NCBI GenBank assembly: GCA_038229635.1
Contig: JBBROG010000006.1
Coordinates: forward strand, 470-64,469
Reading direction: 5' to 3'
DNA length: 64,000 nt
Source: Gemmatales bacterium
GTDB lineage: Bacteria > Planctomycetota > Planctomycetia > Gemmatales > Gemmataceae
The notes beneath the pieces were generated by a model. That model worked only from the letters and a program-made list of their open reading frames with translations, searched no databases and had not been told where the DNA came from. Made by a program: the position numbers and the translations under genes. Every line of letters starts with the position of its first letter. The stretch's first letter is position 1. Shown here in pieces: positions 57,099-64,000 of this stretch.

Positions 57099-57956
57099 TC
57101 AACCATGCCCCTTCCTCGCCGGCGCGTCCCCACCATACACCCGCACTACGACCAGCACAACGACCGCCGCCAGCACCATCAAGAGCGACACCGCCACCGC
57201 CGCGTCGAGGTTGCCGACGCTCAACTCCAGGAACACCGTCGTCGGCAGTACCTCCGTGTGCATGCGCGTCGCCCCCGAGAAAACCAGGATCGGCCCGAAC
57301 TCGCCCAGCGACCGCGCCCACGCCAGCGTCGCCGCCGTCACCATGCCGCGCCGCGCCTGCGGCAGTACCACCCGCCAGAACGCCTGCGCCCGGCTACAGC
57401 CCAAGGTCAGCGCCACCTGCTCGTGGCGCACGCCGAGGCCGTCGAAGGTCACGCGCATCGTCCGCACCGCGAAGGCGCACGCCACCGCGAACTGTGCCAG
57501 GACGACACTCGGGATCGCATAAGTGATCGGAATCACGCTCTCGACGGCGCGGCCGAGCGACGTCTGGAACAGCAGCAGCAGGCTCAGCCCGATCACCAGT
57601 GGCGGCAGGACGACGGGGATGTCGAGCAGGGCGTCGAGGAGCCCCTTGCCGGGGAAGCGGTAGCGCGACAGCAGGTAGCCGAGCGGCACGGCGCACCACA
57701 GCGACAGGATCGCTGTCACGCTGCACGACAGCAAACTCAGACGCACGGCGTAGCGGATCTCCGGCGAGCGCAAGGGGCTGGCGAGGCGATCCGCCACCCG
57801 CGCCGGCCAGCCGTCCTTGTCGGGGTGGACGTCGCGGAAGAGGTAGGCGGCGTCGGCGGCGAGCATGGCGACGATGAGGACGACGTAGACGCCGCCGAGG
57901 ACGCCGAGGGCCAGCAGAAACGGCGTGTCGGATCGCGACCGGCGCGGCTCGCTCAC
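57099..57956 (-). CDS. ABC transporter permease (ModB/CysTW-like)
   Basis: The GTG start at 57956 overlaps the upstream stop (GTGA). An EAA-like loop ARSLGEFGPILVFSG is present. Confidence 0.85.
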   Translation of the reverse strand: MSEPRRSRSDTPFLLALGVLGGVYVVLIVAMLAADAAYLFRDVHPDKDGWPARVADRLASPLRSPEIRYAVRLSLLSCSVTAILSLWCAVPLGYLLSRYRFPGKGLLDALLDIPVVLPPLVIGLSLLLLFQTSLGRAVESVIPITYAIPSVVLAQFAVACAFAVRTMRVTFDGLGVRHEQVALTLGCSRAQAFWRVVLPQARRGMVTAATLAWARSLGEFGPILVFSGATRMHTEVLPTTVFLELSVGNLDAAVAVSLLMVLAAVVVLVVVRVYGGDAPARKGHG

Positions 57957-59974: not shown

Positions 59975-62900
59975 TTAAGGGTACGCCGAGGGAGTCGTTC
60001 GCTGCCCGCGCAGGCTGGCTCGTCGCTGTCGCCAGACCTCGGGGTCGAGGGGGCCGACCGTCAGACCGCCGTCCCCCTTCAGTTCCAGGCCGGTGAGCGC
60101 CTCGGCCCACAGCCGGGCAAACTCTTCACTGCCGGCCAGGGCGGCCGGCGGGAGGTGCCAGCCGCGCACGTTGCCGTCCAGACCCGCCGTGTAGGCGGTC
60201 GGACTCGCGGGGTCAAAAGCCGCCGCCCAAACCTGGGGGCGGTGCGGCAGGGCGGGGCCGACGGGAGCCCCGGAGGCCGCGTCCCAGAAGCGAGCCGTGC
60301 CGTCGAAGCTTCCGGTCAGCACCAGGCGCCCGTCCGGGCTGTAGGCGATTGCTCTCACCAGGCCGGCGTGGGCCGGCTTGCGGTAACGGGATTGCCCCGT
60401 CGCGACGTCCCACTGATGGAGTTCGGCCTTTCGCCCGGTGGGTTGATGCCCCCCGCTGGCGGTCGCGAGGGTTCGGCCGTCGGGGCTGAAGGCCAGGGCG
60501 TAGACCTCGTCCGCGTGCCCCAGCGGTTGGCCGATGGCGAGCGCCTGGGAAGCGTTCCAGAGGCGGACCATCCCGTCCGCCCCGGCCGTGGCCAGCGTCT
60601 CGCTGTTCGGGCTGAAGGCCAGGGCTTCGACCCGACCCCCGTTCGGGGAGAGCTCGTTCAGTCGCTCGCCGCTCCGCGACCAGGTGCAAACCTTGTCGCC
60701 GCTGGTGGAGCGTGTCGCCAGCATCGTCCCATCGCGATTGAAGGTGAGAGAGGAGACGAAGCCCGTCTGGCGCCAGCGCTCGTGATTCAAGGGCGGCCCG
60801 GCCGGCTGGAGAGAAACCGTATTCCAGCACTGGACCGTACTCCGTAACGGAACCCGCCCTTCCTTCTTCTCCCCGGCCACCCCGGAACCCGTGACGAACG
60901 TTTGCCCGTCCGGGCTGAAGGCCACTCCTTGAGGGATGCCCTCGACGGGGACCCGCCGGCTGACGAACTGCCCCTCGACTTTATCCCAGAGGCGAACTTC
61001 ACTTCTCGTCTCCTCGATGGGGGCAGTCCACTTCCTGCCGACGTCCTCGGTGACCGTGAGCAGGGCGTGCCCGTCAGGACTGACCGCCAGGGCGCGGACG
61101 AGTTGGTACTTGTGTTCCAGCACCAGGCCGTTCGTCTGGCCGGGCGCCTCGCCCCAGAGCCGCGCCGTGCGATCGGCCGTGGCGACGAGGAGCGTCTTCC
61201 CTTCTGGGCCGAAAGCAAGGACCGTGGCGGCGCCCGCGTGAGGAAGGGGCGTCCCGAGGGGCCGGGCGGTGTCCGCCTCCCAGAGGCGAGCGACCCCGTC
61301 TTTTCCGCCCGTCAGGAGGGTGCGGGCGCCGGGGCCGAAGGCGAGCCGCGCGACGGTCCCCCCGTGCGCCACGGCGGCGAAGACCTGTTGGCCGGTGACC
61401 GCGTCGTACAGAGTCGCGTCCGCCCCGGACGCCAGGGCGAGCAGCGGCTTCCCGTCGCGGAAGGCCAGGGCCGAGGGGGCGTCGGCGTACTCGGGGGACG
61501 GGTCGAGAAGCCGGCCGCCGGCCGCGTCCCAGTGGAAGACCTGCGTAAAGGCTTTCGCCCGCGTGCGGACCACCGACTGGGTGAGGCAGGTCGCGCCGTC
61601 GGCGCTGAACGCCACGGAGCGGATGAGGATGGCAGCCGGCGGGCCGCCGGCCCGATGCGCGAAGTCGCGGAGGACGCCGCCCGTGGCCGCGGCGCACAGG
61701 AGGGCGCGGCCGTTCGCCGTCCCGGCGAGGAGGGTCTTGCCGTCCGGGGAGAAGGCGACGCTGAGGACGGCCTCGGACGGGGCCGCGCCCCAGAGGCATT
61801 CTCCCGTGCTCATGTCCCACAAGTGGAGGCCGGGTTCGCGGACCGTCGGCGGCTTCTCGAAGTTGCCGGACGCCGTCGCCAGCGTCGTGCCGTCGGGGCT
61901 GAAGGCGAGGGCGTTGACCCGGTCGAGTTGGAGGAAGGGTTCGCCGCCGGTCTCGTCCGCCGTGAGGTCGTAGCGCCGCACGGCGCCGTCCGCACTCCCG
62001 ACGACGAGCGCCTTGCCGTCCGGGCTGAGCGCGGCCGTCAGGACGTCCCGCGGCAAGCGGTAATACCCTTGCAACGGCCGCACCTGCCGCCCCCACGCAG
62101 CGAGGTTCAGCCGGGCGACGCGCCCCAAATCGGCGTCCTCTCCGTCCGCCGCCGCGCGCAGGCCGCGCTGGAGCCAGAGCAGGCCCGCGTGGGCCTCGCC
62201 GCGCTCGGACAGCGCCAGCCCGTGGTCGACGAGGAGGCCCGCCGTCTCCCCGTGCGCCTTGCGCACCCGCGCGCCTTGCGCGCGCTCGCGCGGCACGACC
62301 TCCAGGGCGTAGTGCAACAGGCCGGCGAACACGAGCAGCACCGCGACGGCCGCGACGGCGCCGACCGCGGACAGCGTCGGGTTGCGCCGGCACCAGCGCG
62401 CCCCCTTCTCCGCCCGCCCGACCGGCCGCGTGTGGAGCAGCGGCCGGCAATCCAGGTAGCGCCGCAGCTCGTCGGCGAGTTGGCCCGCGCCGGCGTAGCG
62501 CCGCGCCGGATCCTTGTGCAGACACTTCAGGCAGATCAACTCCAGATCGTGGTCGATGGCGGCGTTGAGCTGCCCCGGCGGCACCGGCTCGTTATCCATC
62601 ACCTGGCGCAGCGTCTCGACCGGCTCGGCGGCCTGGAACGGCGGGCGGCCGGTTGAGTGCGACCGTCCGCCCGCTCGGCCGGTGGAAGGCGCGGTAGACC
62701 ACGCCCATGCCGCCCTGGCCGATTCGGGCGTGCAGGTCGTAGTCCCCGAGCGTGGCCGGCGCGGCGGCGCCCCCGCCGAACGAAGGTCGGTCCCGGCCAT
62801 TCAAGGCGTAGGGGAGGGTGGCGGATTGCGACCCGTCGGCGGCGCCATCGAAGGTCCCCGACCGTTCCATCGTCGGCAATTCTTCGAGGCCGGCGCGGAG

Positions 62901-63404
62901 GCATTGCCGCGCCTCCTCGGCGAGGCGCTTCGCGACCCAGGCGGGCATCCGCGCCGGCGGCGGCGCGGCTGCCTCCTCGGCGCCGAAGGCGTCGGCCACG
63001 GCGTCGGCGTGTTCGGGGAAGAGGGCGGTGTAGTCGCCGGGGCCGGGCGTCTCGCCGGCGCGGCGGCGGTAGTCGACGTCGAGGGCGACCAGTTCGCGCA
63101 GCAGCGCAGGCCGCAGCGGCGCCTCGACCGCGCCGACGAACGTCGTCACGTCGGGGCGCTCGCTCGCCCGCCACTCCGCCTCAAAGCGGTCGCATAATTC
63201 GTCGACGCGCCGGGCATCGCGTGGTTCATAACGAAATTCCGCCGCCGCGCTTCCGCCGGGCCTCGCGCGCTCAGGGAATCCGCAGGTGACGACGAAACCC
63301 GCCACCTTGGCGCGAGTATTTCCGAGATTGTTCCGGAAAGGTGTCGGCAACCGATGCGGCGCGGCATTTGCTGGAAGAAGGGCATAAGACCGCCCGGCCC
63401 TCAA
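59975..63404 (-). pseudogene. Ser/Thr protein kinase - TM - WD40 repeat gene with internal deletion of the catalytic core and a frameshift
   Basis: The kinase N-lobe (IGQGGMGVVYRAFHRPSGRTVAL) is in the frame of track ORF 62592..63404. It abuts the C-lobe tail (TGRPPFQAAEPVETLRQV...) in the frame of ORF 59975..62800. The junction is near 62650-62656. No HRD or DFG motif is present. The true 5' start is undetermined. Confidence 0.7.
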
Positions 63405-63415
63405 GGAGTACCGTC

Positions 63416-63769
63416 ATGAGTGCGGAAACGCAGACCGACCTGCAAACGCCGAGAATCGCGGCCGACGACCTCAAGGCCCGGCTGGAATCGGGCGATCCCG
63501 TCATCGTGCTGGACGCCCGTGCGCCTAAAGCGTGGGCGGAGGGCGATCAACGGATCCGGGGCGACGTGCGAGTCGATCCGGAACACTTTCACGCCGACTC
63601 GTCCTGGCCCAAAGACCGGCTCACGGCCGTCTACTGTACCTGAACGAACGAAGCGACGAGCGCCCGTGTGGCGCAAGAGCTTCGTCGGCAGGGCTTCACG
63701 CACGCCTGCGCTCTGAAGGGTGGCTTCGACGCCTGGCAAGCCGCCGGCGGACCCGTCGCCCCCAAGTGA
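63416..63769 (+). CDS. Single-domain rhodanese with in-frame TGA (63641-63643) in the active-site loop: candidate selenoprotein, or a nonsense pseudogene
   Basis: AAGGAG lies 8 nt upstream of ATG 63416. The sequence ...RLTAVYCT-TGA-TNEATSARVAQELRRQGFTHACALKGGFDAWQAAGGPVAPK stays in one frame. The second stop is at 63767-63769. Confidence 0.55.
63648..63685 (+). promoter_or_regulatory. SECIS-like stem-loop 5 nt downstream of the in-frame TGA
   Basis: The outer stem is acgaagc/gcttcgt (7 bp). An internal loop follows, then the inner stem gcgcc/ggcgc (5 bp). The apical loop is cgtgt, with its first base 24 nt from the U of UGA. Confidence 0.4.
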
Positions 63770-63794
63770 CTGCGGCTCGAAGACACCTCCGCGT

Positions 63795-63819
63795 CGGTGC
63801 CGCCAGTCGGGCGGCACCG
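63795..63819 (+). terminator. Hairpin after the extended rhodanese ORF
   Basis: cggtgccgcc-agtcg-ggcggcaccg forms a 10-bp stem, 26 nt after the second stop. There is no U-tract. Confidence 0.3.
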
Positions 63820-63848
63820 ACACATCCAGCTTCGAGAGGACATGGGAC

Positions 63849-64000
63849 ATGGCCAAGATGGCGCTCTTCGTTCTCCTGGCCGCGACAATCGCCGTCCATG
63901 CCGACGGACCAAAGCCCCCCGCGGCGGAGCCGGTGGGGCGAATCGAGCCCGTGGCGACGTTCGACGGCCCGATGCCGACCGGCGTGACCGTGTCTCACAA
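63849..64000 (+). CDS. Secreted protein, N-terminal fragment (continues beyond window)
   Basis: ATG 63849 gives the signal peptide MAKMALFVLLAATIAVHA. The frame is open to the window end. Confidence 0.4.
   Translation, partial: MAKMALFVLLAATIAVHADGPKPPAAEPVGRIEPVATFDGPMPTGVTVSH

Follow-up and report, generated by a model that had tools for sequence, protein, structure and literature searches.

Background

The closest described relatives of the gene studied here are collected in the NCBIfam family NF041203 (rhodanese_LYCAU), a "rhodanese-related (seleno)protein" with a CxU motif, in which U stands for selenocysteine (Sec); in the literature this family is listed as a rhodanese selenoprotein of the CxU type with one Sec (PMC13188914, PMC9312934). 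The present work concerns a complete rhodanese-family selenoprotein gene at positions 63416-63769 (plus strand) of a 64,000-nucleotide stretch of DNA from a Gemmatales bacterium (assembly GCA_038229635.1, contig JBBROG010000006.1, positions 470 to 64,469), which is referred to as the window in the following. The in-frame UGA at 63641-63643 of this gene is predicted, with high confidence, to be decoded as selenocysteine U76 in a leaderless single-domain protein of 117 residues with the rhodanese fold. A selenocysteine protein had been put forward as a possibility in an earlier sequence-only reading of the window, which had also placed rhodanese-type sulfurtransferases among the reported bacterial selenoprotein families. 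The latter is borne out by NF041203 and the two publications cited above, while the former is supported by the exchange of Cys and Sec at one alignment column, a conserved core of the Sec insertion sequence (SECIS), selection acting past the TGA and the catalogued family.

Bacterial SECIS elements have been characterized by an apical loop of 3-9 nt, an upper stem of 4-16 bp, a G in the first two loop positions, a distance of 16-37 nt from the UGA and a minimum free energy (MFE) of -7.5 kcal/mol or lower (PMC13188914). With respect to the decoding machinery, complete sets of Sec-insertion genes have been reported in Gemmata obscuriglobus and Isosphaera pallida (PMC4807772). Acidobacteria have selenoproteins, and the Sec trait is patchily distributed within bacterial phyla (PMC1794560).

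Reading frame and gene structure

The gene begins with an ATG at 63416-63418, and direct reading of the sequence revealed a Shine-Dalgarno-like AAGGAG (63403-63408, plus strand) 7 nt ahead of it. The called open reading frame (ORF), which is also the public protein record, is a 75-aa fragment (P0001) that ends with ...RLTAVYCT at the TGA 63641-63643 (plus strand, codon 76), exactly as given in the sequence-only reading. Translation likewise confirmed that the same frame runs on past this TGA: 41 further codons, TNEATSARVAQELRRQGFTHACALKGGFDAWQAAGGPVAPK, follow without interruption up to a second TGA at 63767-63769 (plus strand), which is regarded as the true stop since homologs share this end position (...PVEPK/APK). 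The continuation had been taken for the C-terminal half of a single-domain rhodanese, and accordingly the Pfam domain Rhodanese (PF00581) was found over residues 16-110, crossing the internal TGA, with an E-value of 1.7e-11 when Cys is written for the TGA. The GC content at third codon positions of the gene amounts to 0.77 upstream and 0.78 downstream of the TGA. The segment from the ATG at 63416 to the TGA at 63767-63769 is thus one continuous rhodanese gene of 117 codons.

The motif around the internal stop reads V-Y-C-T-[TGA] and fits the pattern h-Y-C-x-U, with Sec two residues past the Cys at the end of the central strand. Codon tables of the relatives identify the TGT at 63635-63637 (plus strand) as Cys74, with which the C-x-U motif begins, and the comparison of columns across related loci marks the TGA at 63641-63643 as the predicted Sec codon. 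It was also considered whether the TGT of codon 74 is an unusually rare codon; this was rejected, as TGT accounts for 27 of the window's 158 Cys codons. Among the 32 coding-like long ORFs of the window, 24 end with TGA, the terminus of the rhodanese gene itself included. UGA is therefore an ordinary stop codon here, and a global reassignment is not the explanation for the internal TGA. A scan of the window for other coding frames interrupted by TGA returned a single minus-strand candidate near 57099, where a TGA lies between in-frame coding-like segments (...ARKGHG*GAVMIAVDNL...). It was rejected as a Sec codon, because the two segments were judged to be adjacent genes with a start just past the stop.

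Selection on the two parts of the gene was estimated as the ratio of nonsynonymous to synonymous substitution rates (dN/dS) by the method of Nei and Gojobori, comparing the window gene with three relatives. The values downstream and upstream of the TGA were 0.11 and 0.24 against the relative L027, 0.29 and 0.29 against L001, and 0.19 and 0.32 against L002. The 41 codons past the TGA are under purifying selection.

Conservation of the active-site codons

In order to compare the active-site codons, 82 classifiable related loci were used, which derive from metagenome-assembled genomes (MAGs) of Gemmatales and Vicinamibacterales and from many metagenome contigs; they were obtained by a scan of reference genomes and a scan of metagenomes, the latter of which contributed 80 loci. 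At the two active-site columns, 74 loci are of the CxU type, 5 of the UxU type and 3 of the CxC type. The column of U76 thus holds TGA in 79 loci and TGY (Cys) in 3, TAA or TAG never occurs there, and all in-frame stops at either of the two columns are TGA. This alignment had been anticipated in the sequence-only reading, in which relatives were said to carry YC[ST]CPNE with a Cys opposite the TGA and a check of orthologs for Cys or TGA at this column was proposed: the Cys-forms read YC[TAS]CPNE, and the column is TGA or Cys in the proportions just given.

In the scan of reference genomes, a Vicinamibacterales MAG reads FCT-TGA-TNE at the matching column, Pandoraea species have the Cys-form FCACPNE, and a Gemmatales MAG, the nearest named relative of the window gene, has a stop at each of the two Cys positions (VVY-TGA-ACC-TGA). 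Among all collections, the locus L027 is closest to the window gene, with 72% amino-acid identity; its codons are TGA-ACG-TGA.

The same picture was obtained from protein collections. A HMMER search with a profile of the N-terminal part was run against 1.84 billion cluster representatives, and the best 150 were classified: 86 end with ...[YF]Cx, 26 stop at the first of the two Cys columns and 12 are full-length CxC forms, so that 112 of the 150 break off at either of the two Sec columns. A profile search of a collection of 5.8 billion proteins gave 612 hits, and among the best 120 of these, 91 are full-length CxC forms. The CxC form was also seen in Pandoraea and in the loci L094, L103, L104 and L111-L115. 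Seven of the best 120 database entries (P0172, P0174, P0177, P0182, P0185, P0196 and P0262) read the column as Trp ("C[TS]W"). Most likely, these represent TGA codons translated under genetic code 4 by metagenome gene callers, by which Sec-forms would most likely be concealed in protein databases as seeming Trp variants. The entry P0230 reads W-x-W at the two active-site columns.

The predicted SECIS element

Downstream of the TGA, a two-tier hairpin spans 63648-63685 (plus strand) with an MFE of -22.2 kcal/mol. Its lower stem comprises 7 bp (63648-63654 with 63679-63685) and its upper stem 5 bp (63660-63664 with 63670-63674), the latter closed by the apical loop CGUGU at 63665-63669, in which loop position 2 is G and is followed by U. 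The upper helix begins 19 nt downstream of the UGA, and the first loop base is located 24 nt from the U of the UGA. This distance had been described before as lying inside the range of bacterial SECIS elements and indeed falls within 16-37 nt; the 5-nt loop, the 5-bp stem, the spacing of 21-24 nt and the folding energy likewise all lie within the bSECIS limits given above.

For the comparative analysis, an alignment (A3) of 66 distinct Sec-form sequences was used, which is coding and ungapped, so that columns are matched one to one. The upper helix (columns 26-30 with 36-40) is paired in 99.1% of the cells, and registers slid by 1-3 nt are paired in merely 20-55%. At pair 27-39, C-G occurs in 58 sequences and U-A in 7, and no one-sided intermediates are present; one more double change was found at pair 29-37 and three G-U wobbles at pair 28-38. 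In total, 8 double-change cells were observed, compared to 0.8 expected, and the observed values were attained in none of 500 shuffles. The changes to U-A are at synonymous third positions, Ser AGC to AGU together with Ala GCG to GCA, and judged by sequence similarity they arise in at least three or four separate clades. The synonymous sites within the helix are otherwise nearly frozen: Ala is encoded by GCC in all 65 cases, Ser is never UCN, and the entropy of these sites is 0-0.5 bit, compared to 0.9-1.9 bits at third positions beyond helix and loop. In the loop, G is invariant at position 2, the next base being U in 51 sequences and G in 15. On the basis of this pairing, covariation and freezing of synonymous sites, the helix GCGCC/GGCGC with the loop CGUGU at 63660-63674 (plus strand) is assigned as the conserved core of the bacterial SECIS. 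Across the family, just 61% of the cells are paired in the lower stem, which was rejected as a family feature. The two-tier hairpin of the sequence-only reading therefore exists as described, but only its upper tier is conserved, the lower one being specific to the lineage.

The sequence-only reading had also called for a check on hairpin conservation among orthologs. The upper helix is intact in 63 of the 66 Sec-forms and in 2 of 9 Cys-forms (Fisher's exact test, p = 2e-6), and the difference persists when the Sec-forms are compared with the five Cys-forms of the same peptide (S-A-R-V/A-A-Q) alone (p = 0.003). In three of these five, the helix is broken at synonymous sites that behave as constrained in Sec-forms, namely at columns 30 and 36, both without variation among the Sec-forms, and at column 39, where every change is accompanied by one in column 27. 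The SECIS helix is thus maintained, with covariation, in genes that carry the TGA, whereas it is degraded in the Cys-forms. Among the Cys-forms with the same peptide, L112, L113 and L114 have one broken pair each, at a synonymous site. In L111 (approximately 66-401) and L115 (approximately 301-636), with the sequences CTCPNEASSARVAQ and CTCLNEASSARAAQ, the SECIS-like helix is fully intact, which is consistent with a recent conversion of Sec to Cys.

Relatives with two in-frame TGAs

In five of the 82 loci, the codons homologous to 63635-63643 of the window read TGA-ACx/GCC-TGA, i.e. U-x-U; these are L027:378-386, L001:3220-3228, L031:448-456, L032:1322-1330 and L054:475-483. They are the closest relatives of the window gene, and the same single SECIS helix follows both TGAs. 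Among the 150 cluster representatives, 26 also terminate at the first Cys column. A double-Sec form of this kind is not listed in PMC9312934 or PMC13188914. On this basis it is tentatively proposed, at a little short of an even chance, that Cys and Sec alternate at the first active-site position in the clade of the window gene, and that the UxU genes, with two UGAs 6 nt apart and one SECIS helix, encode a rhodanese capable of forming a diselenide. If so, both positions would be catalytic chalcogens and the site would constitute a selenylsulfide/diselenide redox module rather than a classical sulfurtransferase, and the window gene with TGT at codon 74 would be a single mutational step away from the double-Sec state.

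Family assignment and predicted fold

The best NCBIfam match of the window protein is NF041203 with 104.5 bits (E-value 2.9e-30, profile positions 15-126), followed by a runner-up family with 37 bits. Other TGA-bearing relatives score between 77 and 156 bits, and the leaderless ones among them straddle the cutoff of the family. The top scorers (129-156 bits; L036, L056, L071, L053 and similar loci) have a hydrophobic N-terminus resembling a signal peptide; the window protein is leaderless, and so are many soil forms. As judged from sequence, the family seems to have exported and cytoplasmic branches. Within this catalogued but functionally uncharacterised selenoprotein family, the window protein is a peripheral member without a leader. 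A number of Cys-forms (CxC) carry a DedA/VTT membrane domain (PF09335) as an N-terminal fusion, namely L003-L006 (Pandoraea) as well as P0216, P0237, P0241, P0250, P0251, P0257, P0259, P0265 and P0271. A link of DedA proteins to selenite sensitivity or uptake has been described, and the fusion may offer a lead to the function.

The structure was modelled with AlphaFold2, using an alignment of 100 sequences, on the full-length Cys-form homolog P0156, which has a loop of equal length, and not on the window protein. The model (pLDDT 87.6) has a standard rhodanese fold, in which the central strand TVITY is followed by the 3-residue connector C-T-C and a 15-residue helix that starts at the next Pro. 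According to this model, both chalcogen residues would be located in the 3-residue connector, with the Sec column directly N-terminal to the helix. In a Foldseek search with the model, solved rhodanese domains were matched at TM-scores of 0.68-0.78; nearest in fold were GlpE and the rhodanese domains that form part of persulfide dioxygenases and of CoA-disulfide and persulfide reductases. The closest solved structures by sequence (Alr3790) are devoid of a catalytic Cys.

The loop of the window protein reads C-T-U-T-N-E-A-T, with a nearly invariant Glu79 and no basic residues, and the canonical six-residue cradle loop with a single Cys (C-R-x-G-x-R/T) was not found in the window protein. In a MAFFT alignment with GlpE, in which U was written as C, C74 is placed on the canonical Cys and a gap of 2 residues is opened. 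In a gapless register counted by hand from the L-K-G-G-F motif, U76 falls on the canonical Cys, with identical spacing and matching Ser, Ala, Leu and Phe positions.

Genomic surroundings

A GC-rich 3' hairpin with a 12-bp stem and the loop AGUCG is located at 63793-63821 (plus strand), 24 nt past the true stop. It folds with -37.8 kcal/mol (z = -2.92), and none of 200 shuffled sequences folded equally well. The terminator-like hairpin which the sequence-only reading had placed behind the second stop is therefore real and strong, but "terminator-like" overstates it, since a U-tract is missing; a scan for the terminator consensus did not call the hairpin at 63793-63821. A scan of the whole window against Rfam at the gathering thresholds gave no match.

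Clustering of the neighbourhoods of about 80 loci revealed no neighbour that is conserved across the family, hence the context provides no functional lead. Genes for Hsp20-like, DUF763-like and 2-oxoacid dehydrogenase proteins are neighbours in sub-clades only, and none of them is common to the window. The gene downstream of the rhodanese gene (window 63850-64000, continuing in L026:1156-1950) codes for a product with an MRJP/yellow-family domain (PF03022, E-value 3.4e-27) and an N-terminus resembling a signal peptide; a functional link to the rhodanese gene is not evident. On the minus strand within 59975-63404, two long ORFs in different frames, 62592-63404 and 59975-62800, overlap each other. 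Of a protein kinase they retain only a G-loop (GQGGMGVV, at about 62720) and the tail of a C-lobe (KCLHKDPARRY), ahead of a large WD40 array, and the motifs HRDLK, DFG and APE were found in none of the frames. This region represents either a degenerate gene for a Ser/Thr kinase with WD40 repeats or an assembly frameshift or deletion.

Discussion

Several observations weigh against the decoding of UGA 63641-63643 as selenocysteine or against details of it. The NF041203 score of 104.5 bits falls short of the curated equivalog cutoff of 115 bits, and the literature lists the family as a predicted selenoprotein only. SelA, SelB and SelD were not found by tblastn with E. coli queries in the 64-kb window or any locus flank, and ARAGORN detected no tRNA or tRNA-Sec in the 64-kb window, a null result that covers 64 kb plus the locus flanks and is uninformative for a multi-megabase genome, so that the decoding machinery is assumed here. 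We know of no experimental demonstration of Sec incorporation or activity for this family. Considered alone, the hairpin of the window is no better than chance in sequence with 70% GC (z = -0.74; 47 of 200 shuffles fold equally well), and the case for a SECIS therefore rests on the comparison with relatives. The Cys-forms with the peptide S-A-R-V/A-A-Q still hold 4-5 of the 5 helix pairs, and part of the helix is supplied by this conserved peptide and by shared ancestry. Finally, the MAFFT alignment and the gapless register point to different residues, C74 and U76, respectively, as the counterpart of the canonical Cys.

Three other explanations for the internal TGA were weighed. The gene might descend from a true selenoprotein gene in an organism that has lost or does not express its Sec machinery, and would then be silent or yield a truncated product. 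This would agree with the search for Sec genes within the 64-kb window having been negative and with the patchy occurrence of the Sec trait within bacterial phyla (PMC1794560), and saturated dS leaves room for a very recent loss. It is nevertheless very unlikely, as the SECIS core of the window is perfect, with 5 of 5 pairs and the G-U loop, the frame is intact, in the comparison with the closest relative the part past the TGA has the lowest dN/dS (0.11), and close relatives retain one or two TGAs. Alternatively, the UGA might be recoded through SECIS and SelB to Cys by a Cys-charged tRNA resembling tRNA-Sec, or be read through as Trp or another residue. Natural recoding of Sec codons to Cys by a tRNA-Sec-like tRNA has been reported, and from sequence such an event is indistinguishable from Sec insertion; also, W stands at this column in seven database entries, for which gene calling with code 4 is the simplest explanation. 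Recoding is a rare route to which none of the present results points, and the family is catalogued as a selenoprotein. A general reassignment is contradicted by UGA being the main stop codon in the window, and this explanation as a whole is considered very improbable. A recent nonsense mutation, by which a Cys codon became TGA and left a 75-aa fragment or no product together with a leftover downstream frame, is suggested by gene callers stopping at the TGA (P0001) and by an adjoining upstream gene that looks degenerate or frameshifted, a sign that decay occurs in the region or in the assembly, but is effectively refuted by the dN/dS past the TGA (0.11-0.29) and by the 82-locus column, in which the TGA is kept in 79 loci from at least two phyla, as well as by a SECIS helix maintained through compensatory synonymous changes and by half a rhodanese being very unlikely to fold alone.

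Insertion of Sec at the UGA thus being preferred, the following course of events can be proposed. SelB, GTP and Sec-tRNA(Sec) would be recruited by the SECIS within the coding sequence (core 63660-63674) while the ribosome is positioned at the UGA. The selenolate of U76 may then act as the nucleophile on a sulfane-sulfur, persulfide or related chalcogen substrate, with C74 as the resolving partner and a transient intramolecular selenylsulfide as the intermediate. Where a selenoprotein has a paired Cys, it is usually the nucleophile that Sec replaces, and Sec occupies the second position in about 90% of the environmental members of the family, which is why U76 is favoured as the nucleophile. 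From these sequence comparisons we infer Sec insertion in this organism, the identity of the nucleophile and the type of substrate.

The gene is annotated as a hypothetical protein of 75 residues, and most of its relatives are likewise cut short by gene callers. Correction of the annotation restores a complete, presumably redox-active protein and marks the Gemmatales-like organism as a likely user of selenocysteine. The family is large in soil metagenomes, where Sec-forms dominate, and its natural CxC, CxU and UxU variants are open to comparison. Current understanding is not overturned by any of these results.

Comparison with known systems

With the canonical rhodaneses (E. coli GlpE, PDB 1GMX; PspE), the window protein would share the alpha/beta rhodanese fold (TM-scores of 0.68-0.78 for the P0156 model), a reactive chalcogen residue between the central strand and the helix, and the C-terminal motif L-K-G-G-F-D-A-W. 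It differs in the site itself, which is C-x-U/C followed by P/T-N-E and is acidic, whereas the canonical cradle is a basic loop of six residues, C-R-x-G-x-R. Moreover, in the P0156 model a connector of 3 residues precedes the helix, and two positions instead of one would be redox-active.

The predicted SECIS resembles the E. coli fdhF-type element and the bSECISearch consensus in being a stem-loop of the coding sequence just 3' of the UGA, with a small apical loop and G-U at loop positions 2-3. In contrast to the fdhF-type element, no bulged U is evident in the window element, and its conserved part is confined to a G/C helix of 5 bp. In the UxU relatives, furthermore, a single helix would have to serve two UGAs located 6 nt apart.

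Other rhodanese-type selenoproteins (PMC13188914), i.e. the forms 1, 2 and 4 (UxxS, UxxG) and TsoB (UxxxxU, NF045694), also have a rhodanese domain with Sec in the active-site region. In the forms 1, 2 and 4, Sec is the first residue of a U-x-x-G/S loop and is without a partner Cys two residues upstream. TsoB is a natural example of a rhodanese loop with two Sec residues in close proximity, but it differs in Sec position and motif and is a weak match to the window protein (E-value about 1e-3).

The closest agreement is with NF041203, the CxU type counted as form 3 of the rhodanese selenoproteins, with which the window protein shares the single rhodanese domain, the motif [LV]-Y-C-x-U with Sec in second place, followed by [PT]-N/D-E and S-A-R/S, the in-frame UGA with a SECIS directly downstream, and the existence of CxC homologs. 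Differences from this family are the missing N-terminal leader of the best-scoring members and a Thr, instead of the usual Pro, directly past the Sec. In addition, the closest relatives of the window protein are of the UxU and not of the CxU type.

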